From positions 1 through 52,085 of the IMG/VR virus record IMGVR_UViG_3300014208_001045: a DNA stretch of 52,085 nucleotides. One strand, 5' to 3'. The translations under genes were made by a program, and so were the position numbers. The notes beneath the pieces were generated by a model. That model saw only the letters and a list, made by a program, of their open reading frames with translations. It made no database searches and was not told where the DNA came from. Source of the DNA: a virus. Its lineage: Duplodnaviria > Caudoviricetes. Shown piece by piece: positions 7,178 to 29,918 of this stretch (positions are counted from its first letter, which is position 1; the number at the start of each line of letters is the position of its first letter).

Positions 7178-7205
7178 ACAGGAGAAGCTTTTGAGAAAGG
7201 AGTAA
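7080..7205 (+). CDS. Small highly basic protein (41 aa), not in the ORF track
   Basis: AAGGAG RBS then ATG 7080: MSYARDKRKKLIKKLSKKGKDLSAYRSKAKQIRQEKLLRKE; stop 7 nt before the next start. Confidence 0.55.
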   Translation: MSYARDKRKKLIKKLSKKGKDLSAYRSKAKQIRQEKLLRKE

Positions 7206-7211
7206 AGGCTT

Positions 7212-8312: not shown

Positions 8313-8315
8313 ATA

Positions 8316-8507
8316 ATGCAAGGATCTGCAATCTTCAGCCCATGTCGGGAGTATAGATATAGTTTGTGGCGCAAGTGGGGTGGATTATTTGCCCCTGACT
8401 ACAAGGGATATGTGATGTTTATCGGGCTTAATCCAAGCACTGCGGATGAGAACAGAGATGATCCGACTATTCGTCGTTGTATTGCCTTTACAAAAGCGTG
8501 GGGTTAA
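8316..8507 (+). pseudogene. Truncated DUF1643-like gene (N-terminal 63 aa only)
   Basis: YRYSLWRKW...[10 protein letters not shown]...DDPTIRRC...AWG is the recognisable N-terminal part of the family; it stops right after AWG. Confidence 0.7.
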
Positions 8508-8535
8508 ATGATCATATTAAAAGAAAGGAGATAAG

Positions 8536-8901
8536 ATGAAATTTTTGTTAACCGGGACTTCTGTTTATGGGCCGTTATCTGCAGATAGCGATATTGATAT
8601 TGTTTTGATGCAGGAGGATGGTTTAAAACTGGAAAAGTATTTTATCAAAACAGGGACAGAGCTTTCGCCTTGTGGATTGAGACAGGATTACCAGGGGTTT
8701 AACGTCCATATTCCTGGCATGCCGAAGATCAACATTATTTTTTGCGAGAACGCTATGCATTTTGAATGTTGGAGATATGCAACGGAGCAAATGAAACAGA
8801 GTGCTGTGATACCGGATAAACAAGATAGGATTCGCTTATTTATAACCTTTTGGGATGAAAGAATGAAAAGACTGAAGGAGGCGTCAGGAACTGGGAACTA
8901 A
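8536..8901 (+). CDS. Minimal nucleotidyltransferase (Pol-beta superfamily)-like protein
   Basis: LTGTS..G....SDIDIV motif near the N-terminus; AAGGAG RBS. Confidence 0.6.
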   Translation: MKFLLTGTSVYGPLSADSDIDIVLMQEDGLKLEKYFIKTGTELSPCGLRQDYQGFNVHIPGMPKINIIFCENAMHFECWRYATEQMKQSAVIPDKQDRIRLFITFWDERMKRLKEASGTGN

Positions 8902-8920
8902 TACAAAAAAACTTTCTGCA

Positions 8921-9298
8921 ATGGGCTATCAGAAACTTGTTGGCGGGGCTGTAAAAGGTAAAGGATTAAGGCGGAGAAGAGTTCTTGATACGGGAGGTGC
9001 ACAGATTACTTTGGAGCTGGACTTTCCCAAACTCCTTGAACTATATCATGCACAGAAGGGAGAGTGCTTTTATTGCGGGGCAAGGATGACTCTCCAGAAT
9101 GGGGTTACAAGGGATCATTTTTTTGCTAAGTCTATCTCCTGGAGAAACAGAAGTCTTTTGGGCAATGCTGTATTGGCCTGTCAAAGATGTAATAATGAAG
9201 AAAAAGGGAATCGCCTACCGTCTGATAGTGAGTTTGAAAGGTTTTTGTCTTTATATAATGCAGTAGTTGTGGCCGGATCTTATAAGGAGTCAAAATGA
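8921..9298 (+). CDS. HNH endonuclease
   Basis: CFYCG, TRDHFF, N.VLACQRCN..KG zinc-finger HNH signature. Confidence 0.85.
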   Translation: MGYQKLVGGAVKGKGLRRRRVLDTGGAQITLELDFPKLLELYHAQKGECFYCGARMTLQNGVTRDHFFAKSISWRNRSLLGNAVLACQRCNNEEKGNRLPSDSEFERFLSLYNAVVVAGSYKESK

Positions 9299-9492
9299 CG
9301 CACACACAAGCAACGATAACGGTTTATGTGACAAAAGCAGAGAAGAACGACATAAAAAACTCAGCAATTATTAAGAAAAAATCAATGTCAAAATATCTTC
9401 TTGATTTACATCTGAGCCAAAAACAGACATATAGTTACCCACCTGGCCCACCAGATCCGCCGAGACCGAAAGGGCATAATCCTTGCGGGTGA
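9295..9492 (+). CDS. Small protein, possible ribbon-helix-helix DNA binder with Pro-rich tail
   Basis: ITVYVTKAEKNDIK..A...KSMSKYLL pattern; AAGGAG RBS. Confidence 0.5.
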   Translation: MTHTQATITVYVTKAEKNDIKNSAIIKKKSMSKYLLDLHLSQKQTYSYPPGPPDPPRPKGHNPCG

Positions 9493-9503
9493 AAGGAGTC
9501 AAA

Positions 9504-9686
9504 ATGAAAACGACGGTGATCGGTCTTGAACTCATAAAACAATTATCTACAGCTTATGATCACAATCCTTCTATTTTTCCGCTGGAGAGCAAGATAAACG
9601 AGATAATAAGAAAGGTGAATCTTCTAATTGAATTAGAAGAGGAGAGACTTAATAATACTTTTACGGTTTTAAAGGAGACGAAATGA
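9504..9686 (+). CDS. Hypothetical protein
   Basis: AAGGAG RBS before ATG 9504; ATGA overlap with the next gene. Confidence 0.6.
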   Translation: MKTTVIGLELIKQLSTAYDHNPSIFPLESKINEIIRKVNLLIELEEERLNNTFTVLKETK

Positions 9687-10600
9687 ATGTTTTAATTACC
9701 GGGGGCAGAGGCTTTGTCGGCAGATATCTGGTCAGACTTTTAAAAGAGACTGGGCATCAACCAATCGTTTTGAATCCAAACTTTGATATTACCGGCATCA
9801 ATAATGCGGCCTTTAAAGCTTTAAAAGGGGTTGAGATTGATGCCGTAGTTCATCTGGCCGCATTGTTGATGATAGACGGACATCAAGCTACGGAGTATTT
9901 TAGAGTTAATAGTCTCGGGACTTTAAATGTTTTGGAATTTTGTCGCTATCATGGAGTGAAAAAATTTATCTATACCATGACGCATTCAGATCTAAACGGG
10001 ACGGATGGAGTAATCAGCTCAAATGATCCTGTGAATTTTAAGACGGGGAGCTGGGAACACAATTCGATCCCTTTTATCACTTCCAAGATTGCCGGGCAAT
10101 TAATGCTTGAGGCTTATTATCGGGCCGGGGCTTTTCTCCAGGCATATACCTTACGCCTGTCAAACATAAGAGGTTACGGGAGTAAAGATGCGAAGTATAA
10201 TTGTGTCTTCCATCAATTTATTCAGAAGGCGATAAAAGGAGAGGACATTGAAATATGGGGCAATCCGCCAAAGACAAGAAGAGACATTATTTATGTCAAG
10301 GATGTCTGCTACGCCATTATAGATGCAATAAATACCAGAACAAAGGAATATAAGTTGCTTAATATCGGTTCTGGTATAGGATACACAATCGAAGAAGAAG
10401 CAAAGGAGATTATTGAAGTGTTTTCTCCCGCAGATAATAAGTCCAGATTGATCTACAGACCTGATATAGAGGAGGTGAGAAAGAAGGGGCAGATCTTTGA
10501 CCGGGTTGATGCTTGGGCGGCATTAAACTGGAAGCCGAAATATTCGTACCGGGAGGCATTGCAAGATTATAAATATGAAATGGAGAAAAATCTAAAATGA
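9683..10600 (+). CDS. Atypical NAD-dependent NDP-sugar epimerase/dehydratase (FxxxK in place of YxxxK)
   Basis: GGRGFVG, VVHLAA, NSLGTLNVLE, RLSNIRGYG, RDIIYVKDV; the catalytic motif reads FITSK. Confidence 0.88.
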   Translation: MNVLITGGRGFVGRYLVRLLKETGHQPIVLNPNFDITGINNAAFKALKGVEIDAVVHLAALLMIDGHQATEYFRVNSLGTLNVLEFCRYHGVKKFIYTMTHSDLNGTDGVISSNDPVNFKTGSWEHNSIPFITSKIAGQLMLEAYYRAGAFLQAYTLRLSNIRGYGSKDAKYNCVFHQFIQKAIKGEDIEIWGNPPKTRRDIIYVKDVCYAIIDAINTRTKEYKLLNIGSGIGYTIEEEAKEIIEVFSPADNKSRLIYRPDIEEVRKKGQIFDRVDAWAALNWKPKYSYREALQDYKYEMEKNLK

Positions 10601-11307
10601 ATGAAGTTGCGATTACTTTTGATGTCGACTGGGCAGAGAGCGGGATTATCAGTGAAACTTTAGAGATTGTAAAAGAGGCAAAAATCAAGAGTACTTGGTT
10701 TATCACTCACTATAGTCCCGCTGTTGTTGAATTGATGGATAATAAACTAATTGAGGTAGGATTACACCCGAATTTTTTACAGGGATCGACTCAAGGACAA
10801 ACCCCTGTGGGCGTGATGAATTATTTGACAAAGATTTGTCCGAAAGCAAGATCGGTCAGGACTCACGCAATGGTATATTCCTCTTCAATTGCAAGGATGT
10901 TTCCTCTATATAATCTGACAATTGATAGTTCCATATGTCTTTTCGGGGCAAAGCAGGTTGAACCGTTTGTGATAAGGTTCCCGGAGGGTAAAAAGCTGAT
11001 AAAGATGCCTTATGTTTGGTCAGACGACGGAGAGATGATAAATTCTCCCGAATGGAAGCTTCCGAGTTTGGATGAGGAAGGATTAAAGATTCTTTGTTTT
11101 CACCCGATACACATTGCTCTTAATACATGTTCGTGGGAGCAATATCTTGCTTTTAAGGCCGAATATAAACAGACAAGAGATCTTTCAACAGTTCGCAAAT
11201 TTTATCAGGTCTCCAAATATGGAGCGAGAAACTATCTGCTTGATGTAATGTCTCTAAACTTTCCGTTTAAAAAACTGAGCAGGATAGCGGGTGTTTATGG
11301 ATTATAA
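10597..11307 (+). CDS. Polysaccharide deacetylase, WbmS-like (NodB fold)
   Basis: ITFDVDWA, TWFITH, EVGLHPNF, SVRTH and FHPIHIALN metal-binding motifs. Confidence 0.82.
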   Translation: MNEVAITFDVDWAESGIISETLEIVKEAKIKSTWFITHYSPAVVELMDNKLIEVGLHPNFLQGSTQGQTPVGVMNYLTKICPKARSVRTHAMVYSSSIARMFPLYNLTIDSSICLFGAKQVEPFVIRFPEGKKLIKMPYVWSDDGEMINSPEWKLPSLDEEGLKILCFHPIHIALNTCSWEQYLAFKAEYKQTRDLSTVRKFYQVSKYGARNYLLDVMSLNFPFKKLSRIAGVYGL

Positions 11308-12241
11308 AATACTCCCTTGTGGTCTATCAAGCAGAAAGGACAGCCGGATTCGGCAATATATTTCCTGCTTGATAGACAAGTATTCTTTGAATTTGAGAGA
11401 CAGGATCATCTTTACTGAATACGCAACAGGCAATTATTACTATACGGCAGTCATGGCCAAGATGGCAGGAGCTGAAGAAGTTTATGCTTATAGTCCTTTG
11501 TCTTTTAGTCAGCCCTGTTTGAGTCAGGATGGAATAATACAAACCTCTATCAGAGACTTTATACGGGCGGCAGACATAATAACGAACTCAGGTAATGTGA
11601 GACCCATTACCCGTCTTGATATTGATATAATGAAACCTTCGGCGGTGATTGCTTTAATGATGATGAAGAGTCAGGTCAGGGACGGAGATGTTGACCTGCT
11701 TTATTGTGACAAGCGGCAAATTAGATTTGTCGAAACTGATGAGGCAGGTATTGGTATTTTGGATTCAATTGGTTTTAAGATAATGAAAGTTTGCTTTGAA
11801 GCGGGTCTTTCTGTTTGGAGAGATCGCTTTTTTCTTCTTTCCTCCCGCCTTATTGGTTTTAAGACGAGAAAGTTCTTTGAAAAAATGGGAGTTCATATTA
11901 GTATATCCTTGGTTGATGATTTTTACGACGCCATAATACTCTCCGATTATAGTAACGATATTGATGCGAGCTTGTTGAAGGAATGGATACAAAGGCTTGC
12001 GAAGATTAATCCATTGATTCGTGTTATATGGATATCAGGAGAGCTTGATGAGTCTTGGTGTTTACAAAAGGGAATAGATATCTATCCGCTGATGAGTAAA
12101 TTGGTTGGAGGGTTAAGAAAAACAAATGTTTCCGGAGATTATTTATCATATAAAGTGACGCTGGAGTTAAATGTGGCTTCTTTAAAAGCCGCTGAAATTG
12201 CTTTGGATAACCGGGGAGAGATAAGCAATAAAAACAAATAA
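11291..12241 (+). CDS. Hypothetical protein of sugar-modification loci (possibly Rossmann-like)
   Basis: TEYATGNY..TAVMAKMAGA and ADIITNSGNVRPI..MKPSAVIALM motifs resemble proteins recalled near WbmS-like genes; overlaps the deacetylase stop. Confidence 0.55.
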   Translation: MFMDYKILPCGLSSRKDSRIRQYISCLIDKYSLNLRDRIIFTEYATGNYYYTAVMAKMAGAEEVYAYSPLSFSQPCLSQDGIIQTSIRDFIRAADIITNSGNVRPITRLDIDIMKPSAVIALMMMKSQVRDGDVDLLYCDKRQIRFVETDEAGIGILDSIGFKIMKVCFEAGLSVWRDRFFLLSSRLIGFKTRKFFEKMGVHISISLVDDFYDAIILSDYSNDIDASLLKEWIQRLAKINPLIRVIWISGELDESWCLQKGIDIYPLMSKLVGGLRKTNVSGDYLSYKVTLELNVASLKAAEIALDNRGEISNKNK

Positions 12242-13688: not shown

Positions 13689-16600
13689 ATGCCTGATAAA
13701 ATTCCTGAAAAGCTTTTTAACTCAGTAGTCAAAGACCAGGTTCAGCTTGATAAATATTCTATTGGTTTGGCAAACAGGGTTGAATCGCTTTTAAAAAAGA
13801 CGCAAGCGGATGTTGTAGGGGCAATTGCCAAGAATGATCCGACTGGCCCCGTAATGACAAAGTGGAGAGCTGATCGCCTTGAAAAACTGAATGCCGATAT
13901 CTCCTCTATTGTCGATTCCCGTTTTTCCGAAATAAAAGATTCCGTTAAACAAGATCTCTCCGCAGTAGCCAAAGCCCAAGCTTCCAATGTTGTTCAAAAA
14001 ACCAATGCCGCCATTGGAGCGAATCTGTTTGAGGTTACTCTTGATCCTAAAAACGTAAAGAGCATCCTTGAAAATACTCTTATTGATGGCAAATTGATTG
14101 GAGACTGGTGGGATAAGCAAAGCGCCGATACTAAAAGTCTTCTTCAGGGACAGATGATTGCCGGGACACAGGCTCTTCAGATTGGTATGGTTCAGGGAGA
14201 GTCTGTGGGAGAGTTGATTAATCGGATAAAAGGGACGGCGACAAAACCTGGAATTATGAATATCACAAGACGAGCCGCCGCCAGTTTGGTAAGGACTTCG
14301 GTAATGCAGGTTGCCAATAATGTAAGGATGGAGACCTATAAAGCAAATGCTGATGTCTTGGCAGGGGTTCAGGTCATAGCGACATTAGATGGCAAGACCA
14401 CTCCTACATGTAGAGCTTTGGACGGCAAGGCTTATGATATGGAAGGCAGGCCAATAGGACATGAAATGCTTTTGCCTCCCGGCCCTCCTTTCCATTTTAA
14501 TTGCAGATCAAGCATGATGCCTTTGCTAAAGTCTTTTGAAGAGCTTGTTGGAATTAAGTCTCCCCTAAGTAAACAGGCGATAGCCGAAGTCAATGATCTG
14601 CCGGGCGAGCAGAGAGCATCAATGAATGGTCAGGTAGCGGGAGATCTTGATTATAACGGATGGTTAAAAATCCTACCCATTAAAGAACAACAGGCAATTC
14701 TTGGCCCGGGCAAGTGGAAGCTTTGGTTTGAAAATAATCTGGACATGACTGATCTGGTAGACAATCGCGCAAACCCTCTTACTCTTAAAGAACTTCAGGC
14801 GGCTTTCGGAGATCTTGTGGCAAAAAAGGAACTTGTCCTTGAAGATCAATTAAAGAATCTTGCTTCTCAGGCTGAGGGGGTGGCAGATTTTAATAAAAAG
14901 GTTGGCGAACTTAGTCAGCAGGGAGATTCAGTCTACGGCTCCTGGTCTTTGGCCAAACAATCTTCGGAACAGGTGATAAAGCTGATACAAGAAGCGGAGG
15001 CGATGACTTATGAACAATTAAAACTCGCCTTTGAAAAACTTAAAATTAAAAATAATTTTTTTGATCCACAAATTGCGGCGAAATTACCGAGACCTCATCT
15101 GAATCAATTATATGCCTCCCTTAAACAACATGTCGGGATGTTTAGTAAAGGCAAGCAGTGGCCGGAGATCATTATAAAAGAGTTGTCTCAATCTCAAGCA
15201 AATTGGATTGGCTCGTTTACTCCGGCTAACAATAAAATTGCAATCAATTCAAAATATGCATTTAATGTTCAAAAAATGGCGACTGCCGGCAAGAATTGTA
15301 TGAGTAGCAAGTTTCATTGTCCGTCTTTTGCCAACTACTCTTTAAAGTCAACGCTGGATCACGAGCTGGGTCATTCCTTGACAACGAAAGAACCAAAAGC
15401 TCTCCGTAAACTTAAGCTGAGTCTTAAAAAGATTGATATCCAGACAGGAGTGTCAAAATATGCCACCAAAAGCAGAAAGGAGTTCTTTGCAGAAGCGTGG
15501 GAGGAATATCTAAACGCTGAACACCCGCGTTTGCTCGCAAGGACAGTTGGAGATATAGTTACGAAAAAAGATCCGGCCTTAGTGGAGAAGATTCTAAAAT
15601 GGGCGTCCACGGGAGAAAATGTATTTAAGAACCTTGTTTTTCTTAATAAAGAGACAACAGCGGCCGAGATTATCAAGGCTAAGGGAGGGGCGAGTCAGTT
15701 TGTCGCCAAGGTAGTGCAAACAACGGAGGCCGAGATAATCGCCAAGCAAGAGAAAGTCTTGTTGACCGATCTTAAGGACGCTAACAAGGTCGTGACATTT
15801 ACCCCTAAGCAGAAACTACCAGAAGGGATATTTACTCCGGTTGAGGGAGGTTTCCCGGCGCTTGCAGAAGGCAAGAAAACCATGTATGGTAAGCTAAATA
15901 TTTATCCTGATACAGGAATAATACACGAGCCCATTATGGCTTCTGGTAAACAATCTGCTGGCATGATTCTTATTGATGCGGAGACTGAAAAAGTTTGGCT
16001 TTGTTCTCCGAAGGGTCAATTTGGCGGTTATCAAAATACTTTCCCGAAAGGAACGATTGAGCAAGGAGTGTCACGCCAGGTAACCGCCATTAAAGAAGTT
16101 TTCGAAGAGACCGGCCTTGAGGGCAAACCTTTGTTTCACTTGGGAGATTATAAAAAGACAACCGGGACGACCAGATATTATGTCGGGGTAAAGACGGGGG
16201 GTAGTCCGGCCATGATGGGTTGGGAATCGGAAGCTGTCCATTTATGCCCGCTCAACAAACTCTCTACTCTTCTGAATTCGGAAATAGACAAGGATATCGC
16301 GAAAGATTTTATCTCTAATTATAAGGAGGCTTTGAAACTCGGAGAAGGCAAACCCATTAAAGGCTTTGAAATTCTCAACAAGGAAAAAATTGCCAAAGAT
16401 AAAGTTGAGAATTTAATTGAGGAGTATAGTGGCTTATTGGGAGAAAAGAAAATTGGAGCCCTTAATAAAGCGGAAATTAAGTGGGAGCAGAAAAAGGGCA
16501 TTATTAAAACAGACATTTATGAAACGGCGCAGGAAAAAATTGGAATATGGGCACAGAATCCAAACACAACTGGAGGCATGGCGCTTGAAAAATACAAAGG

Positions 16601-19600
16601 CAATTTCCCCAAGTTTCTTGATACTGATAATGTAGAGAAAGTGGATTATCCTTCTTTGTGGAAGAAAGTTCATACAGATCTCCTTAAAATAAAAAGTAGT
16701 AAAGACCAGGAACTGTTGAATTTGATTAATACCGATAAAGGGGCTATCGCTTATGACAAAGCTCTTAAGGCTGGCAAGATCTCGAAAGCCATAGAGTCAG
16801 ATCCGGTCGCAAAACTCAAGATCATTAATGATGAGCTTAAGACAATGGCGGAGATCGCAAAAGCGGTCTCCCCGGAATCCACAATCAAAACTCTTGGCGC
16901 AACAAACTATGACATATCTGACCCGACTCAAGCCAAGAAGTTTAAGAAGATGGTCAATTTTCATACATACAAATTCATTAAGACGGTTCAGACTGGAGGA
17001 GCGATCCCGAATGCTCAGCAACAGGCTTATAATTTTTTAAGTGATGCGGAGAAGAGAAAAGTACAGAAGAAGCTGGCAAAATTTGGCAAGACTGTTCCTG
17101 CAGGTGTTGTGACCTCTCCTAAAGTCACTGTAAAGATTGCAGAGACTAAAGTTCCTGTACCGCCGGCAGAGACCGTCAAACCTCCCATAAAATCTAAAGT
17201 TTCTGTGGAGCCAGAACCTGCAGGATCTTCCATCAAAATTCTTGGTGCAACAAAATATGATCTGTCAAACGAAGAGGAGTATGCTAAGTTTAAGAAGATG
17301 GTTAGTTTCCATGCTTCCAAGTATGTTAAATGGGCGGCAGAAGGTAAAGCAATCCCGAATGCTCAGCAACAGGCTTATGATTTCTTAGACGAATTTCAAA
17401 AAGCTAAAGTTAACGAGAAGATTGGTCTCCTCAAAGCTAAGTTGGGACTTGGGGAGACGATGAAACCAGTCCCTTCTTCGGTAGCAAAGAAATTGGATTT
17501 TGATAATCTGGTTAAGTATGGCAGTGCGGAAGGGTCGAATGTCGGGGGTTATTATAACGACATAAACAATCCAGCAGAGAGATATTATATTAAATTTTCT
17601 TCGAATCCGGAGATTGCAAGAAACGAAGTTCTGACCAACAAGCTTTATCAGGCGGCAGGGGTTGATGTCCCTGATGTTCAGCTGATTGATGTCAATGGTA
17701 AGACTGGAGTGGCTTCTAAAATAGTTGACGGCTTATTAAAAGATGGAGGCAAAACCTTAAAACAGGGTGTAGTGACCGCAGGAGTAAATGATGGATTTGT
17801 TGTAGATGCTTGGCTTGCAAACTGGGATGTTGTTGGTCTTAATTATGACAATATGTTGATTAAGGACGGGGTAAAAGCAATAAGAATGGACAACGGAGGA
17901 GGATTAAGATTCAGGGCTCAAGGGACACCGAAAGGGACAGATTTTGGAAAAACCGTTTTTGAATTGGAGACTATGAGGGGAGTAAAAAATCCTCAAGCGG
18001 CAAAGATCTTTGGGAAGATAACAAAAGCGGATTTACAAGCCGGGGCAAGAAAAGTCATCTCCATTCCGGATTCTAAGATTGAAGAGCTGGTTCGTAAATT
18101 TGGCCCGGCAAGCGAAGTGGAGAAAACAAAACTTTTGGAAACTTTGATTGCCAGGAAAAAATACATAAAGGCGGAATTCCCGGAAATTAAAATGGAGGCT
18201 CCGGCCAAACTTCCCGCAGGGGCTACCGACAGAATAACTAAATTTGAGGCTAATGCGATAGAGAAATCAAGAATCAATGGTTATGCTGTCAAGACTGATA
18301 AAAAGATGGTTGAAGATCAACAGGTTTTATTCTGGACGGAGAAAAACGTTCAGGGTAAGCCGCTCGTCTGTGCTCAATTTAAACTAAGAGCAGAGGGAGC
18401 GGAGAAAATGAATTCTTATTTATCAGGAACCCAGCAGGGTGCTTATGATTCAACAAAGCTTTATGATTCTATAATGACTACCCTGAGAGGCATTGCTATG
18501 GTTTCCCGGGAGGGTAATGCTTTGAGGGGTAAAGATATTACCCGGGCAAAAGAGTCTCTTGCTTTATTTAAAAGTGAAATACAAAGTCTCAAGGCGTCAA
18601 ATAAATATCGTCTTTCTGATGTGCAAAATCTTGAGAACCATTTTAAGCCATGGCTGGACGTTTTGGAAACGACAATTTCCCGTGGAGAAGGGACGGTTTA
18701 CAAATGGGCAAAAGACAATAGTTTTAAAAACGCCTTTACTTCTCCAGACTCGATTGTAGAAAAAGCTCTTGACTCAGCAAAGTCTTCAGTCCAGTTTGTA
18801 AAAACCCCTAAGTCAAAGATTGTGGTTGCGAAAAATGTGGTCAAAGGTTATGCCCGCCAGACAGAAGAAGTTTTGGACATGGCGAGCCATTATAGCGGAC
18901 AGCCTTATGAAACCGTAATTGATGGAGTAAAGATCAAGTATTGGCCAGATAATAACGACACTCCTTTTTCTTTCCGTGGGTTGGTAAGGGCCGAAACGCA
19001 GGGACAGACGAAGGCTGAAATGGAAAAGATTTTATCTGTCTTAGAAGAAAAACTGTCTCTTGATATGGCACGGGCAAGTCAGGCAGATCAGGAGTTATTA
19101 TACCTTTCGCAGATAGCTTATAGCAGGAATAGTCCTGCTTGTAAAACTCTCTTGACTCAATTAGAGAAAGGGCCACGGGCTGGAGATATTGAAAAGCAGA
19201 TTGACTTTTTGAAAAAAGGTATTTCGTCTGATGCCGGTTTTGATATAACAAAAAGTTCGAATTATAATTATGAAGGATTTACGAAGACATATGGAACTGG
19301 CAAGCTTCATAATTATCGGCCGGACTATGTTGATTCGGAGTGGAAGGAGTTTGAAAACGGACACAAAATTGTCAAGGACGTAGGGGGAAGCGGAAGGGAA
19401 CTTCTTAGACAGCTTCTTGACAATGGAGGAGAGATGATTTCCAATGTTGAAAGAGGAAGAAAAGGCTTTGATTATGGAGGCATGTCTCCGGTAGCAGATA
19501 TAGATACTGGTGGAGCTAATTATTTTTTTACACGGATTAAAACAAATGATGAAGCTTTTAAATTTGACATTGTATGGAATGCAAGGGTTTTAAGAAGGGT

Positions 19601-19910
19601 TGATGCCATATCATACCCGCGGGATCTTTACGGAAAGACAACGGGCAAGACTGTGACGGCCCATAGACAAAATCATAATGTTGCTTCTTTAAAAAATGCG
19701 GCAAATGGATCGAGTAATGAGACAAATTTTAAACAATCTTTAAGCGTTCTTGATCCTGATTTGGAAACATGGATCTGTTCATCACCGTCTCAAAAACAAG
19801 AGATGATAGAAATTATGCGGGAACATGGTTATCGGGAATGGCCGGGAGGTAAAAAATTGAGTGATGTTTTTCTGACGAAGGAAGAAGCAATTGAAAGATA
19901 TCGTAAATAA
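13689..19910 (+). CDS. Giant MuF (SPP1 gp7-like) head morphogenesis protein with polyvalent C-terminal enzyme domains (zincin, Nudix, HipA/PI3K-like kinase, possible ART)
   Basis: MuF ATLDGKTTPTCRALDG...PPFHFNCRS; HELGH at 15360; Nudix box GTIEQGVSRQVTAIKEVFEETGL at 16050; kinase YYIKF/NEV/DAWLANWD/DNGG at about 17580-17900; located directly after the portal. Confidence 0.9.
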   Translation: MPDKIPEKLFNSVVKDQVQLDKYSIGLANRVESLLKKTQADVVGAIAKNDPTGPVMTKWRADRLEKLNADISSIVDSRFSEIKDSVKQDLSAVAKAQASNVVQKTNAAIGANLFEVTLDPKNVKSILENTLIDGKLIGDWWDKQSADTKSLLQGQMIAGTQALQIGMVQGESVGELINRIKGTATKPGIMNITRRAAASLVRTSVMQVANNVRMETYKANADVLAGVQVIATLDGKTTPTCRALDGKAYDMEGRPIGHEMLLPPGPPFHFNCRSSMMPLLKSFEELVGIKSPLSKQAIAEVNDLPGEQRASMNGQVAGDLDYNGWLKILPIKEQQAILGPGKWKLWFENNLDMTDLVDNRANPLTLKELQAAFGDLVAKKELVLEDQLKNLASQAEGVADFNKKVGELSQQGDSVYGSWSLAKQSSEQVIKLIQEAEAMTYEQLKLAFEKLKIKNNFFDPQIAAKLPRPHLNQLYASLKQHVGMFSKGKQWPEIIIKELSQSQANWIGSFTPANNKIAINSKYAFNVQKMATAGKNCMSSKFHCPSFANYSLKSTLDHELGHSLTTKEPKALRKLKLSLKKIDIQTGVSKYATKSRKEFFAEAWEEYLNAEHPRLLARTVGDIVTKKDPALVEKILKWASTGENVFKNLVFLNKETTAAEIIKAKGGASQFVAKVVQTTEAEIIAKQEKVLLTDLKDANKVVTFTPKQKLPEGIFTPVEGGFPALAEGKKTMYGKLNIYPDTGIIHEPIMASGKQSAGMILIDAETEKVWLCSPKGQFGGYQNTFPKGTIEQGVSRQVTAIKEVFEETGLEGKPLFHLGDYKKTTGTTRYYVGVKTGGSPAMMGWESEAVHLCPLNKLSTLLNSEIDKDIAKDFISNYKEALKLGEGKPIKGFEILNKEKIAKDKVENLIEEYSGLLGEKKIGALNKAEIKWEQKKGIIKTDIYETAQEKIGIWAQNPNTTGGMALEKYKGNFPKFLDTDNVEKVDYPSLWKKVHTDLLKIKSSKDQELLNLINTDKGAIAYDKALKAGKISKAIESDPVAKLKIINDELKTMAEIAKAVSPESTIKTLGATNYDISDPTQAKKFKKMVNFHTYKFIKTVQTGGAIPNAQQQAYNFLSDAEKRKVQKKLAKFGKTVPAGVVTSPKVTVKIAETKVPVPPAETVKPPIKSKVSVEPEPAGSSIKILGATKYDLSNEEEYAKFKKMVSFHASKYVKWAAEGKAIPNAQQQAYDFLDEFQKAKVNEKIGLLKAKLGLGETMKPVPSSVAKKLDFDNLVKYGSAEGSNVGGYYNDINNPAERYYIKFSSNPEIARNEVLTNKLYQAAGVDVPDVQLIDVNGKTGVASKIVDGLLKDGGKTLKQGVVTAGVNDGFVVDAWLANWDVVGLNYDNMLIKDGVKAIRMDNGGGLRFRAQGTPKGTDFGKTVFELETMRGVKNPQAAKIFGKITKADLQAGARKVISIPDSKIEELVRKFGPASEVEKTKLLETLIARKKYIKAEFPEIKMEAPAKLPAGATDRITKFEANAIEKSRINGYAVKTDKKMVEDQQVLFWTEKNVQGKPLVCAQFKLRAEGAEKMNSYLSGTQQGAYDSTKLYDSIMTTLRGIAMVSREGNALRGKDITRAKESLALFKSEIQSLKASNKYRLSDVQNLENHFKPWLDVLETTISRGEGTVYKWAKDNSFKNAFTSPDSIVEKALDSAKSSVQFVKTPKSKIVVAKNVVKGYARQTEEVLDMASHYSGQPYETVIDGVKIKYWPDNNDTPFSFRGLVRAETQGQTKAEMEKILSVLEEKLSLDMARASQADQELLYLSQIAYSRNSPACKTLLTQLEKGPRAGDIEKQIDFLKKGISSDAGFDITKSSNYNYEGFTKTYGTGKLHNYRPDYVDSEWKEFENGHKIVKDVGGSGRELLRQLLDNGGEMISNVERGRKGFDYGGMSPVADIDTGGANYFFTRIKTNDEAFKFDIVWNARVLRRVDAISYPRDLYGKTTGKTVTAHRQNHNVASLKNAANGSSNETNFKQSLSVLDPDLETWICSSPSQKQEMIEIMREHGYREWPGGKKLSDVFLTKEEAIERYRK
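16884..17387 (+). repeat. Two ~52-aa internal repeats in the MuF protein, 348 bp apart
   Basis: IKTLGATNYD...KFKKMV.FH..K...AIPNAQQQAY.FL twice; identical 27 bp at 17004-17030 and 17352-17378. Confidence 0.92.
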
Positions 19911-20561: not shown

Positions 20562-20945
20562 ATGTGGGTTTTTACAATAGACGGCTTTTTTAGCGTGGTG
20601 CATAAGCCACAACAGAAAGCCGGTATGGTTACAGTCAGAAGCAGATCTCGTAGAGACCTGCTTTGGTTTTTGGAGCGGGTGGACGGAGCTATTAAAGATA
20701 TTAAAGAGCATGCCGGGACTGATTATGAATTTCGGGTGGAGATAAGTGAGGAAAAATGGCGTGCTTATCTTGGCGAGATGAGTCAAAAACTGAACTACTC
20801 CAATTTTAAAGATGAGGTCTCTTTAATAGATAAAAAACGAGGCTCATTATATTTACAGGTCTGGTTGGCCATGCTTCATGTTTTTGAACCGCGAAAAAAG
20901 CGTAAAAAAAGCAAAGATTTATTTATTTATGAAAAAGTTCTTTGA
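20562..20945 (+). CDS. Conserved-looking hypothetical protein (MWxFTxxGFxSxV...DYxxR...YxNFK)
   Basis: AAGGAG RBS before ATG 20562 (in frame with track ORF 20421..20945). Confidence 0.75.
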   Translation: MWVFTIDGFFSVVHKPQQKAGMVTVRSRSRRDLLWFLERVDGAIKDIKEHAGTDYEFRVEISEEKWRAYLGEMSQKLNYSNFKDEVSLIDKKRGSLYLQVWLAMLHVFEPRKKRKKSKDLFIYEKVL

Positions 20946-21007
20946 GATTTAAAAGTTTTAGGTTAATATAAGTCATCATTAATTCAAACCTACCGGGAGG
21001 AGATTTT

Positions 21008-21778
21008 ATGTTAAAATTGGTTGTCGACAAAGTAGAAGACGTTGAAGAGAAAAACCGAGATCTTTATAAAAAAGGAGCCGACGGTAAATTTTATCTTCAG
21101 ACGGAAGAAGACACAGAGACAAAGAAGAAGATCGACGAGTTCAGGACAAACAACATCAAGCTGATGAAGGAAAAAGAAGACCTTGAGAAAAAGATGGCTT
21201 CGATGGGTGATCCTACCGAAATTGCAAAGATGAAGAAAAAATTGCAGGAGATCGAAGACAAAAAAATGATCGAAGCCGGTAAGCTTGACGAACTGGTTGA
21301 TCAAAAAGTTGCAAGGATGAAGACCGATTTTGAGAATCAGATTAAAAAGATGACCGAGTCTTTGGAGAATAAAGATAAAGATCTGATTAAGATAAACGAG
21401 CAACTATCTTCTGTCCTGATTGACTCTGAGATCACAAAAGCGGTTACCTCTGTCGGCGGCGTTCGTAAGGATGCAATGCAAGACATCTTATCAAGGGGCA
21501 GAAAGGTATGGAGACTGGAAGATGGCAAGCCGGTTCCCAAAGAGGGAGACAAGCTTTTATACGGTAAAGATGGTAAAGCGGCAATGACTTTTGATGAATG
21601 GGCCAATATCCTTGCAGATACGGCCCCTTTCCTGTTTGAAGGATCTGGTGGTTCCGGAGCTGGCGGGAGTGAAAGAAAAATTATTCCCGGGTCAACAAAA
21701 GTGGAGTGGGGTAAAATACCCCCGAACGAAAGACTTAAAATGATTCATGGAGATCCTAAACTTCAGGCAAAACAATAA
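21008..21778 (+). CDS. Capsid scaffolding protein
   Basis: Charged coiled-coil, EFRTNNI motif, PFLFEGSGGSGAGG near the C-terminus; directly upstream of the capsid gene. Confidence 0.85.
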   Translation: MLKLVVDKVEDVEEKNRDLYKKGADGKFYLQTEEDTETKKKIDEFRTNNIKLMKEKEDLEKKMASMGDPTEIAKMKKKLQEIEDKKMIEAGKLDELVDQKVARMKTDFENQIKKMTESLENKDKDLIKINEQLSSVLIDSEITKAVTSVGGVRKDAMQDILSRGRKVWRLEDGKPVPKEGDKLLYGKDGKAAMTFDEWANILADTAPFLFEGSGGSGAGGSERKIIPGSTKVEWGKIPPNERLKMIHGDPKLQAKQ

Positions 21779-21791: not shown

Positions 21792-21910
21792 GGCTCGGTG
21801 AGCCAACCAACTTTATAAACAAACAGTTTGAGTTCGGTGAACAAAAACGGAATCCCGGCGGGATTTTAATCTTTAAATAGATTACTATCTTTAGCCGGGA
21901 TTTTTTATTT
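21792..21910 (+). promoter_or_regulatory. Three CGGYG-loop hairpins plus a mutually exclusive terminator-like stem in the capsid leader
   Basis: GGCT-CGGTG-AGCC (21792-804), GTT-CGGTG-AAC (21832-42), AATCC-CGGCG-GGATT (21851-65); AATCCCGGC 21851-59 also pairs with GCCGGGATT 21894-902, followed by a U-tract. Confidence 0.65.
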
Positions 21911-21943
21911 AACAACCACTAAAAAAGAAGGAGGACGATTAAG

Positions 21944-22888
21944 ATGGCGTTAACACTTGTAGAAAGCGCAAAAATTGCTTTAGGCAGAGATGAAGTCTTG
22001 AAAGCAACGGTCATGGAACTCTTCGCCAAAGGGTCAGACATCATGCAGTTTCTTCCGTTTGAGGACATTACCGGTAATGCCTTGAAGTTTGACAGGGAGA
22101 AGAATCTCCCGGGCGTAGCCTTCAGGGGAGTAAATGAAGGATATACCGAAAGCACTGGCGAAGTTGAAAAAGTCATTGAGTCACTGGCAATTGCTGGTGG
22201 AGACCTTGACGTTGATGTTTTCCTGGTAAAAACAGGCGGTGCTGGTCAAAGAGCTGTACAGGAAAATCTGAAGATCAAGGCTTTAACACTCAATATCACC
22301 AAACAGATTGTTAAAGGGTCAGTTCTTGTTGACCCGAAAGGCTTTGATGGCCTTCAGGTCAGATGCACAGGAGATCAGCTTATCTCTTCTGGTGCGACCT
22401 CTGCTTCACAGGCTCAGGCATTGGCGCTCACCAAACTTGATGAGGTAATTGATGCAGTCGAAGATCCTACCCATCTTATCATGAACAAGACAATGCGCCG
22501 GTTGCTGTCTGCGGCCGCAAGAAGCTCATCTGTAGGCGGATACATCACTTACGAGCTGGATGCTTTCGGCCGAAGGGTGACAAGGTACAATGATCTCCCG
22601 ATTCTCATTGTCGACAAAGACGAAAACAATTCCGATATCTTGGCATTTGACGAACTTGGCCCGGCCGCTTCCGCCAGCGAAAACACCTCTATCTACTGCG
22701 TCTCCTTTGCAGAGAATGGGGTTCTTGGTCTTCAAAATGCGGAGATGGATGTTCGGGATCTGCAGGAACAGGATTCCAAACCGGTTTACCGGACAAGGGT
22801 GGAATGGTATATTACTCTTGGTATTCTCCGCCCGAGAGCCGCGGCAAGGCTTTATGGTCTCCGGAATTCGGCAGTAACGGCAACTTAA
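21944..22888 (+). CDS. Major capsid protein (HK97 fold, epsilon15 gp7/BPP-1-like)
   Basis: 314 aa; LPGVAFRGVNEGY, GGDLDVD, KGFDGL, SIYCV, YRTRVEWY, AAARL; strong GGAGGA RBS. Confidence 0.92.
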   Translation: MALTLVESAKIALGRDEVLKATVMELFAKGSDIMQFLPFEDITGNALKFDREKNLPGVAFRGVNEGYTESTGEVEKVIESLAIAGGDLDVDVFLVKTGGAGQRAVQENLKIKALTLNITKQIVKGSVLVDPKGFDGLQVRCTGDQLISSGATSASQAQALALTKLDEVIDAVEDPTHLIMNKTMRRLLSAAARSSSVGGYITYELDAFGRRVTRYNDLPILIVDKDENNSDILAFDELGPAASASENTSIYCVSFAENGVLGLQNAEMDVRDLQEQDSKPVYRTRVEWYITLGILRPRAAARLYGLRNSAVTAT

Positions 22889-23465: not shown

Positions 23466-24686
23466 GTGACGATAATGAAATCCGGGAAATTGTTGTCCGC
23501 CTGCATGATGGTGAAAGATGAAGAGGCAAATATCGGCAGGTGCTTAAACTCGATTAAAGGTTTTGTAGATGAAATAATTATTGTAGACACGGGCTCGACA
23601 GATGATACGATCAACATCGCCAAGTCTTTTGGCGCCCGTGTCTACAATCATCCTTGGCAAAGTGATTTTTCACTTCATCGCAATCAATCACTTTCTTATT
23701 GTAAAACAGAGTGGGCTTTTATAATTGATGCTGATGAAGAGCTGGTTTTTGAGGAGAGTAGCAAACAGCTAAGAACCAGGATCAAGACAATCCCACATAA
23801 GTTTCCCTCCGCCGCGCTTTTGGTTAAAGATATACAAAAAGGGTTGGCGGTGATGCAATTCAATTCAGCAAGATTTTTTCGCCGGGGTCAGGTCAAATAT
23901 GAGGAAATAGTCCACAATCAGCCTGTCGTAAAAGGCAAGGCGGTTTTTTGCAAGGGCTTTTATCTTAAACATTACGGATATGATTTGTCTCCAGAACAAA
24001 AACAAAAGAAATTTGAGAGAACTCACTCTCTATTGATGAAACAGGTGGAGTTGGGAGAGCTTAAAAACGGCTTTCCTTATTTCTATCTCTGCCAGCTTCA
24101 TGCTCAAAACGATCAACCGGATCAAGCAGTTGTTTGGGGGGAGAAGTATTTTGAAATCTATGATCGCGGAGAGATCCCTGACGGAATGTTCAATAAAACG
24201 CATTATTTTACCATGGTTAAGCAGTACATGAGGTGCGGGGAGAAAGAGAAAGCACATGCCTGGTTGATGAGAGGGCATGAAAAAATGCCGGGAGATCTTG
24301 ATTTGACAGCGGCCGCGCTTGAATATGGTTTATGGATCGGAGATAAGGATCTTGTAATTCATTCTGGAAATGATTTTATCAAAATATATCAGCAGTATGA
24401 AAAAGATCCTTCTAAAAAGTCTCAAAAATTTGTCTTCTCTATGAGGCCGGAAGTTTTGTCAATGATATTGATGCATCTTGTACTTGCTCATGTCGGTAAA
24501 GCAGGAGACGGTCTTAGGCTTTTATTCGCATCATTAAAAGACGCACCACCAAATTTTAGAGACGGCATTATGACTGATCTTAAAAGGGAGATGGCTAAGT
24601 TATCTTTCCCTGTAAAGATAGAGCCGGTTACCCGGCCAGAAGAAATAAAGAATGTCGATATGGAACTAACAACATTAAGTATTTAA
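23466..24686 (+). CDS. GT2 glycosyltransferase with helical (TPR-like) C-terminus, resembling flagellin/peptide glycosyltransferases
   Basis: LSACMMVKDEE..IGRCL.S....VDEIIIVDTGSTDDT, WQSDFS..RN, DADE (DxD), VHNQ, HYGY. Confidence 0.9.
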   Translation: MTIMKSGKLLSACMMVKDEEANIGRCLNSIKGFVDEIIIVDTGSTDDTINIAKSFGARVYNHPWQSDFSLHRNQSLSYCKTEWAFIIDADEELVFEESSKQLRTRIKTIPHKFPSAALLVKDIQKGLAVMQFNSARFFRRGQVKYEEIVHNQPVVKGKAVFCKGFYLKHYGYDLSPEQKQKKFERTHSLLMKQVELGELKNGFPYFYLCQLHAQNDQPDQAVVWGEKYFEIYDRGEIPDGMFNKTHYFTMVKQYMRCGEKEKAHAWLMRGHEKMPGDLDLTAAALEYGLWIGDKDLVIHSGNDFIKIYQQYEKDPSKKSQKFVFSMRPEVLSMILMHLVLAHVGKAGDGLRLLFASLKDAPPNFRDGIMTDLKREMAKLSFPVKIEPVTRPEEIKNVDMELTTLSI

Positions 24687-27324: not shown

Positions 27325-27996
27325 ATGAGAAAATTACTTGATTCGATAATTTCAGCGGGAGCAAAAGGATCAGAAAAGCTTCCAGACCCCCGAGCTTATC
27401 ATGCGCTGGAGTTGGTTGTTTCTGGAACTTTTGCAAGTCTGGAAGTTGCTCTTCAAGGGAGTGTTTCGGGAAATGTTTGGGCGACTTTGGCTTCTCACAC
27501 ATTTGTAGAAGCTGACTTTACTGCTGGCGGAGTTGTAATTGAAGCAGTCAATAAGCCGGTGGAGATGGTCAGATGCAATGTTCGCATTTATAATTCCGGG
27601 ACTGCGGCAACTGCAACTCTTACCTCTACGGGTAATGCCGCTTCTGGAGACACAATTACTCTTGACACAAAGACATATACTTTTAAAACTACCTATAAGG
27701 AGATAGAGGGGCTCGTGGTTGTTGGCGGATCAGCGGCGACAAGTTTACAGAATTTAAAATATGCGGTTAACTTAGGGGTTGGTAGTGGGACGACTTATTT
27801 TGCCGCCGCCGCGCATCCTACAGCATCCGCCGCAACAGCTGATGCAACAACAATTTCTTTTGTAGCTAAAGAAGCAGGAGACGCAGGAAATGATATTGCG
27901 ACGACAAAAGTTGCCGCGAATCTGGCTTTTGGCGGTTTACACATGACTGGCGGGGTCAACTACGGAGTAGTTGATGGATATTATATGCCATATTAA
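27325..27996 (+). CDS. Ala/Thr-rich virion structural protein (neck/tail appendage)
   Basis: VALQGS..GNVW and GDTITLDTKTYTF...GNDI..T motifs; lies between terminator and tail tube. Confidence 0.65.
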   Translation: MRKLLDSIISAGAKGSEKLPDPRAYHALELVVSGTFASLEVALQGSVSGNVWATLASHTFVEADFTAGGVVIEAVNKPVEMVRCNVRIYNSGTAATATLTSTGNAASGDTITLDTKTYTFKTTYKEIEGLVVVGGSAATSLQNLKYAVNLGVGSGTTYFAAAAHPTASAATADATTISFVAKEAGDAGNDIATTKVAANLAFGGLHMTGGVNYGVVDGYYMPY

Positions 27997-28029: not shown

Positions 28030-29418
28030 ATGAGTACAAATTCAAACAGCATAGGATTGGCAAGGAGACAAAAAGCGTTCTTTTTGCTTGAGGACACTTT
28101 TGGAACAATTCAATTCCCGGTTGGGACTTTGGACTTTATCGCCCCGGTCGGAAACGCATCAATTAATCAGAACCCGGCATTTGTTGATTCAGAAGAAGTC
28201 CAAGATACTTTGGATGTGACAAACCGATTTCAAAACGCTCTCCCTGCGGCTGTTTGGAGTCTCCCAATGTATCTTCGTCCTTCGGGGACTATCGGATCTC
28301 CTCCGCAGGGTTCTGCTTTGTTCAGAGCATTACAGGGAGCGACAAATGCTACTACGACCGCCGCTATTACAACTGATCCCGGCGCCACTGCAGGAACGAT
28401 TGAAATTGGAACCATTGCTGGCGGGATTATGCCGGAGACAGGAGTAGTCACAGTAGATACGGAGAAAATCCGATACTCTGGCATTTTAAGGGCATCAAGA
28501 ACGGCCACAGCGGCGACTTTGACCGGTTGCGAAAGAGGATATGATGCTTCGACTGCCGCAACCCATGCGCCTGCTAAAGTCGTAACCCTGTCAAGTATTT
28601 TTTACAGACAAACGACAACCTCTCCGTCATTTTCTCTTTGGGTAGAATCGGATCATCTTGTTCAGGGAGTTCAAGGAGCAAGTGTTGATGCCTGCGATAT
28701 GGAGGTCAACAACGAAGGAGCCATTACGTTTAATTTTTCCGGGCAGGGAATGAAAATGGTTTGGGCTGGATCTTCGTCCCTGTCTGCATCAAGCTTGGCG
28801 ACAAATACTCATCTCCATGTAGTAGATGCCTCATTATATTCTACAGGGGCATATATCTGGAACTATACAAAAGGGGCAGGGGTTAGCGCTCATGCCAGCA
28901 TAGCGACTGTTGATACGGTAAATAACATCCTTTATCTTTCTAATGCGCTCGGTTGTACCGGAGCTACAAGCGATGTTATAAAAGGATATCTCCCGACAGG
29001 AACGCTTATTGGAGATCCGATTGAATCAAAGAATACTTCTCTGTTGATTAATGGGGTAGCGACTTTGATCAAGGCTTCGTCTCTTTCTATTAAGGCTCCG
29101 AAAAAGTATCTGACTGATGAGGTTGGTACTTTATTTCCTGAAGATTTTCTTGAAGACAAAAGAGACATAAGCGGATCATTGAGAATTTATTTCCGCAAGG
29201 CTGATGCCAAATATTTTACCAAAGGATTGAGTTCGACAGAGTATCCTGTGCTTATCAACTTTGGTAATGTTGACGGAGAAGAAGTAGTCCTTTATATGAA
29301 GAGAGTAAAGATAGAAGCTCCGGCTGTTGAGTTTAGCACTCCGGCAATTGATCTGACAATTCCGGTAAAGGCTCTTGGCACGGTTGGAGAAGATTCACTT
29401 GAAGTAATTTTACCATAA
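28030..29418 (+). CDS. Major tail tube protein with inserted surface domains
   Basis: PSFSLWVE, KRDISGSLRIYF core; inserts such as GVVTVDTEKIRYSG...LTGCERGYD...H; precedes the chaperones. Confidence 0.82.
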   Translation: MSTNSNSIGLARRQKAFFLLEDTFGTIQFPVGTLDFIAPVGNASINQNPAFVDSEEVQDTLDVTNRFQNALPAAVWSLPMYLRPSGTIGSPPQGSALFRALQGATNATTTAAITTDPGATAGTIEIGTIAGGIMPETGVVTVDTEKIRYSGILRASRTATAATLTGCERGYDASTAATHAPAKVVTLSSIFYRQTTTSPSFSLWVESDHLVQGVQGASVDACDMEVNNEGAITFNFSGQGMKMVWAGSSSLSASSLATNTHLHVVDASLYSTGAYIWNYTKGAGVSAHASIATVDTVNNILYLSNALGCTGATSDVIKGYLPTGTLIGDPIESKNTSLLINGVATLIKASSLSIKAPKKYLTDEVGTLFPEDFLEDKRDISGSLRIYFRKADAKYFTKGLSSTEYPVLINFGNVDGEEVVLYMKRVKIEAPAVEFSTPAIDLTIPVKALGTVGEDSLEVILP

Positions 29419-29426
29419 AATTAAAG

Positions 29427-29494
29427 TTTGGTGCGGATAGATAGAATTCATCCTATTGAAAGCGACCCGGCGCCCTCCGCACCAAAGCCTTTTT
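29427..29494 (+). promoter_or_regulatory. Three-way-junction RNA structure / terminator-like element between tail tube and chaperone genes
   Basis: Perfect 11-bp TTTGGTGCGGA 29427-37 / TCCGCACCAAA 29476-86 enclosing ATAG/CTAT and GCG/CGC stems joined by GAAA; T-run follows. Confidence 0.55.
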
Positions 29495-29534
29495 CTCCGG
29501 GAGATATGATTGCAGGTTAAACCGGGAGGATAGT

Positions 29535-29918
29535 ATGAAATTAAGAATCAAAGCAGAAGAAAGATGGGTAACAGTTCACAAGTCTGAAGGATCAGAAGAG
29601 AAAGCAGAATTTTTATTGATCTGCTTGAGCCCAAGAGACAATTTCGATTTAGTCCAGGAAAATACTAAAAAAGAGTGGGAGAATGGACAGCGTTTTGAGA
29701 CTGCTGATCTATATGCATTTAAGATCGGCAAGATCTGCAAGACAATAAAGGACTGGAAAGGAATTGAAGCGCCAGACGGAAGTCCTCTCCCATGTACTGA
29801 TGAATGGAAAAAGATCGTTTATCTCTACAATCCCGAATTTATCAACAAGGTTTTAGATGAAGCGGAGAAATTATCTCAAGATGTTGCCGGTAAAACGGAA
29901 GCTGAAATAAAAAACTAA
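29535..29918 (+). CDS. Tail assembly chaperone (gpG-like)
   Basis: IKDWKGI..PDG.PLPC motif; ends EIKN at a slippery site. Confidence 0.85.
   Translation: MKLRIKAEERWVTVHKSEGSEEKAEFLLICLSPRDNFDLVQENTKKEWENGQRFETADLYAFKIGKICKTIKDWKGIEAPDGSPLPCTDEWKKIVYLYNPEFINKVLDEAEKLSQDVAGKTEAEIKN

Follow-up and report, generated by a model that had tools for sequence, protein, structure and literature searches.

A covarying RNA element with the anatomy of an attenuator, and a candidate protein-gated switch, between the scaffold and capsid genes of a tailed phage

Introduction

Protein-gated RNA attenuators have been described mainly for bacterial metabolic operons. Outside of P22, we know of little detail about how tailed phages match the supply of scaffold to that of capsid. 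In P22, work by Wyckoff and Casjens from 1985 is said to have found that scaffold is autoregulated: it reportedly senses free scaffold and exerts negative feedback on its own synthesis.

The closest described systems are as follows. The targets of the ANTAR proteins (i.e., EutV, NasR, and AmiR) are dual hairpins whose hexanucleotide loops have A at position 1 and G at position 4, with a linker of 5-12 nt between the hairpins (PMC3369931). The RAT elements of BglG, SacY, and LicT are single stem-loops of about 30 nt (PMC12591593 and PMC3369931). GP20-a and GP20-b (RF02991 and RF03003), along with six further motifs, lie upstream of GP20 genes, and their function is given as not known (PMC10690425). 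Finally, Aca1 and Aca2 are phage HTH proteins that repress translation from hairpins in the 5' UTR (PMC13551039).

Here, we describe an element from a 52-kb virus record (the window, by which we mean the whole stretch of 52,085 nt that was analyzed). The element lies in the 165-nt gap between the genes for the scaffolding protein (21008-21778) and the major capsid protein (21944-22888). Like the GP20 motifs (PMC10690425), it is a structured RNA beside a GP20-related scaffold gene. Those motifs are upstream of the gene, while this element is downstream of it, has a predicted switchable terminator, and matches no Rfam model.

Results

The window and its head operon

Nearly all of the long ORFs in the window are on the + strand. 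The same scaffold protein is recorded on a contig of 90.6 kb, so the window represents about 52 of about 90 kb. Because about 40% of the genome is outside of the window, a regulator could be encoded there.

The scaffold gene (21008-21778, + strand) encodes a protein of 256 amino acids (phrog_206, E = 2e-33) that is our candidate for the loop binder. Some relatives' scaffolds contain PF06810. The conserved middle domain (residues 121-218; model pLDDT of 88) matches other phage scaffolds and proteins that are labeled as GP20. Fold searches with the full-length scaffold or with the domain (best Z = 4.3) found no match to a solved structure, nor did a sequence-based search, which neither supports nor excludes RNA binding by the scaffold. 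The scaffold of one relative, at 49% identity, is recorded under a Syntrophales MAG, while the bins of other relatives belong to unrelated phyla.

Just 5' of the scaffold gene is a sigma70-like promoter candidate (20942-20969, + strand) that matches the consensus at 9 of 12 positions, in a scan whose total number of hits was at the chance level. Most relatives have AT-rich stretches resembling -35 and -10 boxes at the same place (by eye), and a strict regular expression matches 10 of 21. The scaffold leader also has an ACCGGG motif (20992-21002, + strand) that runs into the Shine-Dalgarno sequence. WCCGGG is found in 15 of 21 related scaffold leaders, as compared to 21 of 1,004 ORFs overall, and 7 of those 21 are scaffold genes themselves. 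In addition, 4 of 8 records have the word CCGGG in front of the portal gene (at 12266 in the window).

The capsid gene (21944-22888, + strand; phrog_212, E = 3e-77; PF20911; NF045672) would be the first gene behind the predicted gate, and it is followed by head-completion and tail genes. Elsewhere in the window, a 2,073-amino-acid head morphogenesis (MuF) protein (13689-19910) is fused to a NUDIX domain and to further unannotated domains; across relatives, the length of the MuF protein ranges from 377 to 2,073 amino acids. A glycosyltransferase within the head operon (23466-24686) is kept in 9 of 11 records, and many sugar-nucleotide-type enzymes are encoded 5' of the portal gene (801-12241).

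Three hairpins and two mutually exclusive folds

All of the hairpins are on the + strand. H1 (21792-21804) is GGCTC-GGT-GAGCC. H2 (21826-21848) has a two-part stem, with GTTC-GGT-GAAC at 21832-21842 and an extension that pairs GTTT (21826-21829) with AAAC (21845-21848). H3 (21851-21865) is AATCCC-GGC-GGGATT. H1 and H2 are thus capped by C-GGU-G triloops and H3 by a C-GGC-G triloop. Positions 21851-21859, from the 5' half of H3, are the exact complement of 21894-21902, which is followed by TTTTATTT, and this pairing encloses a TAATCT/AGATTA stem (21867-21872 with 21879-21884).

An earlier note on this DNA had listed the three hairpins, the complementarity, and the inner stem, and every one of its coordinates and pairings is present in the sequence. 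It had described the apex as CGG(T/C)G. The loop is indeed shared, but the pentamer is not the right description: both thermodynamically and in the relatives, the apex is a three-base loop that is closed by C-G or sometimes by U-A, and its third base is free (Y-RGN-R).

The alternative fold is a long stem like that of an intrinsic terminator (21849-21910, + strand), with a 5' arm at 21849-21864, an inner hairpin at 21867-21884, a 3' arm at 21887-21904, and a U tract that runs to 21910. The earlier note overlooked a middle helix that joins 21860-21864 to 21887-21891 and includes a G-U pair. With this helix, the long fold reaches -26.4 kcal/mol, as compared to -12.6 kcal/mol if H3 is enforced. 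The long stem has about 22 pairs. A G+C-rich stem followed by a U tract is the anatomy of an intrinsic terminator. A simple terminator scan, which permits only loops of 3-8 nt, did not list this + strand stem. H3 overlaps the 5' arm, so that it is a predicted antiterminator that would hide this arm. When prefixes of increasing length are folded, H3 is predicted as far as 21895, and the long stem takes its place once 21898 is reached. H2 is weak in the window (its upper stem is worth -1.6 kcal/mol) and is outside of the MFE fold, so the support for H2 comes from relatives.

The three hairpins are real and beyond chance. The window has 109 CGGYG pentamers if both strands are counted, and just the three from the earlier note cap a Watson-Crick stem with at least three further pairs. 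When the gap was shuffled by dinucleotides, 26 of 20,000 shuffles produced three hairpins with a common apex, and 2 of 630 real tiles have them as well. The region folds with z = -5.79, and none of 200 shuffles was as stable.

We also considered translational control via the capsid gene's Shine-Dalgarno sequence (AGGAGG, 21929-21934, + strand). This sequence is outside of both folds in the window and is in neither fold in the relatives (in 21 of them, 33-71 nt lie between the U run and the capsid start codon), so we rejected this idea.

Conservation and covariation across relatives

We retrieved related loci by their capsids, which is blind to the RNA, and obtained 62, 80, and 27 loci. Pattern searches supplied further loci. 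The set of elements combines the two sources (36 elements were analyzed, or 35 without one near-duplicate). H1 was not part of any pattern, while counts for H3 and the terminator lean towards the pattern because pattern-retrieved loci are in the set.

Each of the 16 distinct junctions whose capsid identity is at least 73% has the element, and it persists down to 54% identity (L507). One of the 16 has a 251-amino-acid ORF between the element and the capsid gene: in the closest relative (L065, 95% capsid identity), an ORF of this length, which looks endonuclease-like by eye, lies between the terminator and the capsid gene (after 1550). In another locus (L386), the capsid gene that directly follows the element is interrupted at its start by a group I intron (1367-1594; RF00028, 99.8 bits).

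The earlier note had staked its proposal in part on conservation of the loops, and they are kept. Across 73 distinct hairpins, position 2 is always G; position 1 is G, A, or T in 65, 7, and 1 cases; and position 3 is free, with U in 38 and A in 20. The closing pair is C-G in 70 hairpins and U-A in 3. That note also called for a covariance model, and ours has a single strong match per record in 8 of the 10 phage records that were searched whole; the other two are variant types. There is one copy of the element per record in 8 records.

In the model-fitted alignment (34 rows, one of which is an antisense match), 90.5% of the cells in the antiterminator fold are paired, as compared to 76.3% in shuffled alignments and at most 57% in slid controls. 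The same alignment has 62 double changes versus 19 if shuffled, with the caveat that relatedness inflates such tests. In an unfitted alignment, 88.7% of cells are paired versus 76.9% if shuffled. As for H1, if the hairpins are anchored on their loops, all 24 distinct ones retain the three pairs beside the closing pair, with 4 or 5 types of pair at each. Because the H1 positions were picked as hairpins, we made a separate background check: C-RGN-G with at least three further pairs occurs in the H1 zone of 29 of 35 elements, as compared to 26 of 343 in the window at large. There are 25 G-U pairs and just 4 A-C mismatches, which points to an RNA from the sense strand.

The spacing of H2 and H3 is nearly fixed: 34 of 35 elements have a distance of 20-22 nt between the two loops, and only about 1-3 nt separate the base of H2 from H3. 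The distance between the loops of H1 and H2 varies from 25 to 42 nt. On the terminator side, the 3' arm changes together with the H3 loop (in L002 and L003) or with the H3 stem (in L454, L480, L476, L478, and L507). The mean energies in relatives are -26.6 kcal/mol for the long stem and -11.2 kcal/mol with H3 enforced, and all 21 of the capsid-retrieved terminator-type loci have 6-8 T within the 9 nt past the stem core. The length of the stem and the inner loop differ widely. So the aligned sequences indicate that the folds exclude each other, as the earlier note had it; that compensatory changes preserve both; that the loop is the conserved part; and that the element is strand-specific.

Just past the U tract, 15 of 35 elements have sequence whose pairing with the freed 3' arm beats that of 95% of shuffles. 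This helix is stronger than in shuffles (Wilcoxon p = 0.0013) but not significantly so against the next 24 nt (p = 0.074), and it is absent from the window (p = 0.20). Because it can form only after read-through, we count it in favor of an attenuator. We also noticed that the terminator's 3' arm (21887-21893 in the window, and its counterpart in relatives) pairs with the 3' half of H3 mostly via G-U (22 of 36 at two positions), which prevents the arm from becoming a second H3-like palindrome. This bias towards G-U is possibly selected.

Three relatives have two hairpins and no terminator, so the loops can do something besides antitermination.

Our broader searches found little else. A loose H2+H3 pattern gave mostly noise, and none of the 167 loci that were searched exceeded 27 bits (11 of 178 were excluded because their records were already known). 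A pattern for a GCTC variant gave three loci, of which one was known and two were without H1, H2, or head genes. In bacterial genomes, matches to H3 plus the terminator were mostly ordinary terminators or Bacteroidota repeats that lack H1 and H2. These Bacteroidota intergenic repeats (L119, L125, L129, L132, and L134) have the H3 palindrome and a CGGTAGC word in inverted pairs, and we treated them as unrelated.

The element tracks a subfamily of scaffolds

We built a tree by a quick method for 68 capsids (from 69 hand-picked non-redundant rows, with one dropped for a wrong start). All of the loci with hairpins are in one clade of 47 capsids (97*), where they are intermixed with loci that lack the element. 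Within this clade, all 21 terminator-type loci and all 3 two-hairpin loci with upstream sequence have a scaffold of the window's type (E of 5e-48 or below). Another 22 loci of the clade (14 "S," 3 "V," and 5 with short gaps) have a different subfamily of scaffold (E of 4e-11 or worse), and all but one of these are without two such hairpins. Conversely, 24 of 25 window-type scaffolds carry the motif. The exception is an outgroup locus (L025) that has no hairpins at the junction and has a hairpin with a GGT loop in its scaffold leader. Of the three two-hairpin loci, two have the scaffold's Shine-Dalgarno sequence under a C-GGA-G triloop. In the terminator-type loci, none of the 21 scaffold leaders has a triloop hairpin, and only WCCGGG is found there (15 of 21). 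Long-range pairing of this leader word with H3 was rejected, as there is no compensation in L002 or L003.

An all-versus-all comparison of 11 phage records recovered the scaffold as the sole cluster in all 11, with the caveats that ORF calling missed some capsids and that the records are incomplete.

The distribution of the motif matches that of the scaffold subfamily and not the capsid tree, and the motif also occurs in islands without a capsid (see below). This disfavors the capsid, which the earlier note had offered as a possible binder. Because the motif follows the scaffold subfamily and, more tellingly, the loop types match on both sides of the scaffold gene (as in the S group, below, and in two of the two-hairpin loci), the scaffold is the likeliest binder. 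If the element is an attenuator, then these patterns favor the scaffolding protein, to a modest degree, as the protein that binds the loops. The scaffold gene adjoins the element, so linkage alone could make them travel together and could explain part of the pattern. The lack of a triloop hairpin in all 21 terminator-type leaders, the bare junction of L025, and the islands without a scaffold also speak against the scaffold as binder. As to the joint proposal, that scaffold is the factor of a gated attenuator, we put it forward tentatively.

Other hairpins beside head and tail genes

The S group, a sister group (L467, L470, L471, L474, L475, L477, L488, L490-L494, L500, and L504) has a hairpin with a GGAA tetraloop beside the scaffold's Shine-Dalgarno sequence in 12 of 12 leaders and at the junction in 14 of 14. 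These hairpins covary and are accompanied by a conserved GTAGC word and by no terminator. They are a candidate for a second RNA family.

In a third type of motif, from L006, L459, and L486, the junction has GAGCCTC..GAAGGCC, and a hairpin of the sequence GGC-GTGAT-GCC is found where the scaffold gene starts. It is also seen in the leader of L027 and at the junctions of L531 and L534, and GGC-GTGAT-GCC hairpins lie 5' of the capsids of two cyanobacterial loci.

The leader of the tail assembly chaperone has a hairpin with a TCCCGG loop in relatives G001, G005, G006, G007, and G010, often with CCGGG further down; before this gene, the window has CCCGG and two copies of CCGGGA (29415-29535). A pseudoknot or a second regulatory element is possible. 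A C-GGA-G hairpin with 8 further pairs (27955-27975), within the last part of the ORF that precedes the tail gene at 28030, is not kept in six relatives and was rejected.

Copies in islands that lack a capsid

Three copies of the element are in MAG contigs of Desulfobacterota (i.e., Desulfobacterales, Desulfobacteraceae, and Smithella). These copies have -10-like hexamers 5' and short operons 3'. H1 is degenerate in the Smithella copy, whose promoter region has AAAAAATATCTTT in common with phage scaffold promoters. The island genes include an integrase (L351), recombinases and a Prim-Pol (L353), and a replication-initiator-like gene (L346), and we found no homologue of capsid or scaffold in any of these three. 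The islands share two unnamed proteins pairwise, and we infer that an HTH protein that is common to them is terS-like. A fourth copy (L330) has only H2, H3, and a weak terminator. We sampled 150 + 150 further genomes from two host classes and found no match, with just 30 candidates scored per genome. Possibly, these islands are satellites that sense a helper phage: as they carry the element without the scaffold, either a helper or a different binder is needed.

Discussion

This appears to be an undescribed, strongly covarying phage RNA element with the anatomy of an attenuator. No Rfam model reached its gathering score in the window or at the element in 20 related loci (RF02991 and RF03003 included). 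At a weak level (E up to 10) there were seven matches, all far below the cut-off, and neither RF02991 nor RF03003 was among them; a separate RF03003 search is uninformative, as it gave no match even in the controls. We did not find the element in the literature that we searched, including the accessible parts of PMC5737381 and PMC13551039, nor in four table files of PMC10690425. It could sit unnamed in the alignment supplements of Weinberg 2017 and of PMC10690425.

The earlier note had suggested a protein-sensing attenuator. This idea is partly borne out, as both of the exclusive folds are kept, the loop is kept across unrelated stems, and there is a U tract; the part that fares badly is the capsid as a binder. 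We think it probable, on comparative grounds, that this is a regulated attenuator with a trans-acting binder. A more specific reading is that transcription is attenuated until a protein, most likely free scaffold, acts on the Y-RGN-R triloops. We regard this as a good possibility, if short of probable.

This mechanism would work as follows. Transcription of the scaffold gene would start at a promoter of its own. In the default state, the long stem, which is predicted to be more stable by about 15 kcal/mol, would form, and RNA polymerase would stop in the U tract. H1 and H2 would emerge first and load an oligomeric binder, which, given the fixed 21-nt spacing of the loops of H2 and H3, would clamp H3 before the 3' arm emerges. 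Read-through would then express the capsid, head-completion, and tail genes. If the binder is scaffold, then capsid would be made only after scaffold builds up, and its synthesis would drop when scaffold is tied up in procapsids. The predicted gate would probably control the order and timing of everything downstream on the + strand, and not just of the capsid. The gap of about 15 kcal/mol between the folds is large for one small hairpin to overcome, which counts against this mechanism.

The same attenuator might be opened by a separate antiterminator that is encoded by the phage, such as a small late regulator outside of the head cluster. A large part of the genome is beyond the window, small unannotated or HTH-like proteins are common to 5-7 of the 11 related phage records, and the known ANTAR and RAT systems have dedicated proteins (PMC3369931 and PMC12591593). 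Nevertheless, we think that this is unlikely: the scaffold is the only cluster that was recovered in all 11 records, a single site per genome in 8 records does not amount to a regulon, the type of loop switches with the scaffold subfamily, and among the 47 window ORFs that were scanned (from about 52 of about 90 kb) there is no member of the ANTAR, CAT, NusG, or CsrA families.

A host factor (an RNA-binding protein, a small RNA, or a metabolite) would let both phages and islands read the state of the host, and the three chromosomal islands without scaffold or capsid speak for it. Also, the pair of words CCGGG and UCCCGG recurs before portal, scaffold, and tail-chaperone genes and could be a seed for base pairing. 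Yet the motif is lost or altered in those capsid relatives that have another scaffold, and there are few conserved unpaired bases to make a pocket for a ligand. CsrA needs GGA, while the third base of these loops is U in 38 of 73 hairpins and A in only 20. The lack of a further copy in the 150 + 150 genomes also weighs against a host factor, if weakly, with 30 candidates scored in each. All told, we consider a host factor to be distinctly unlikely.

No more plausible is a device for RNA processing or stability, in which cutting by RNase III or protection of the 3' end of the scaffold mRNA sets mRNA lifetimes and there is no termination switch. Phage heads require more capsid than scaffold, and a plain terminator would oppose that; also, the long stem has about 22 pairs and two-hairpin forms without a terminator exist. 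This scenario is hard to reconcile with a U tract behind the stem in 21 of 21 loci or with the wide variation of stem length and inner loop, and it leaves unexplained why three hairpins share a loop and why a helix forms after read-through.

We doubt very much that this is a leaky terminator that works without any factor. H3 could fold first and act as a kinetic trap that commits a set share of transcripts to read-through. Indeed, H3 is the predicted fold as far as 21895, and the long stem replaces it only when the 3' arm is all but complete, but such a trap needs no H1, H2, conserved loop, or fixed spacing of H2 and H3, all of which are kept.

Finally, we give almost no credence to an element that acts as DNA (a cruciform, a REP-like repeat, an N4-type hairpin promoter, or an operator array), despite the perfect short palindromes, the 21-nt spacing that equals two helical turns, and the H3 palindrome in Bacteroidota repeats, because the stems change freely with pairing kept, the G-U and A-C counts (25 versus 4) favor one RNA strand, and there is one copy per genome, which overlaps a U-tailed stem. 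For a REP-like repeat in particular, we would expect many dispersed copies without strand preference. We set aside resemblances to CsrA, PyrR, IRE, guanidine-II, RfaH ops, and the N4 promoter on the basis of loop sequence or strand, with comparison to models limited to Rfam.

Returning to a gated attenuator, a head operon here offers a 120-nt, strongly covarying, and directly testable candidate switch, and we can name a candidate for its binder. If scaffold does bind, then a structural assembly protein doubles as a regulator of transcription, the orphan RNA motifs next to GP20 would have a likely partner, and the copies in islands would point to a new means by which satellites detect their helper. 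If scaffold is the antiterminator, then this is close to a new kind of protein-gated antitermination, and it would offer a compact orthogonal protein-RNA switch. A broader idea is that scaffold is a sequence-specific RNA-binding antiterminator that reads GGN triloops and thereby turns on its own capsid and tail operon, that GP20-type scaffolds generally read family-specific hairpins next to their gene, and that Desulfobacterota islands without a capsid copied the switch so as to respond only once a helper begins to make heads; we offer this as speculation that is more doubtful than not.

How does this compare to what is known? P22 is the functional precedent: as is reported for that phage, the scaffold is proposed to act on head-gene expression after the start of transcription. 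In P22 this is reportedly negative feedback, whereas we propose positive control of a downstream capsid gene via a terminator. The Aca1 and Aca2 systems (PMC13551039) are alike in that a phage protein acts on small cognate hairpins in its own operon and in that loop and protein diverge together; they differ in that translation is repressed and there is no terminator.

In RAT elements, as in the element, a weak hairpin overlaps the 5' arm of a terminator and needs a bound protein to win (PMC12591593 and PMC3369931). A RAT is a single stem-loop of about 30 nt, whereas the element has a hairpin of 13-15 nt plus two upstream copies of its loop, and no CAT-domain gene is among the 47 ORFs scanned in the window, which is a partial genome. 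Compared to ANTAR targets (PMC3369931), the element has three hairpins instead of two, a three-base Y-RGN-R loop instead of a hexaloop (in 73 distinct loops), and only 1-3 nt between H2 and H3 instead of 5-12 nt; it is in a phage head operon, and the 47 scanned ORFs include no ANTAR-domain gene. What the element and the ANTAR targets have in common is a tandem of small hairpins (with stems of at least 3 bp) in which the loop is shared, the stems vary, and the spacing matters, and whose last hairpin overlaps the 5' arm of an intrinsic terminator. It is likely that the element works in much the same way as ANTAR and RAT antitermination.
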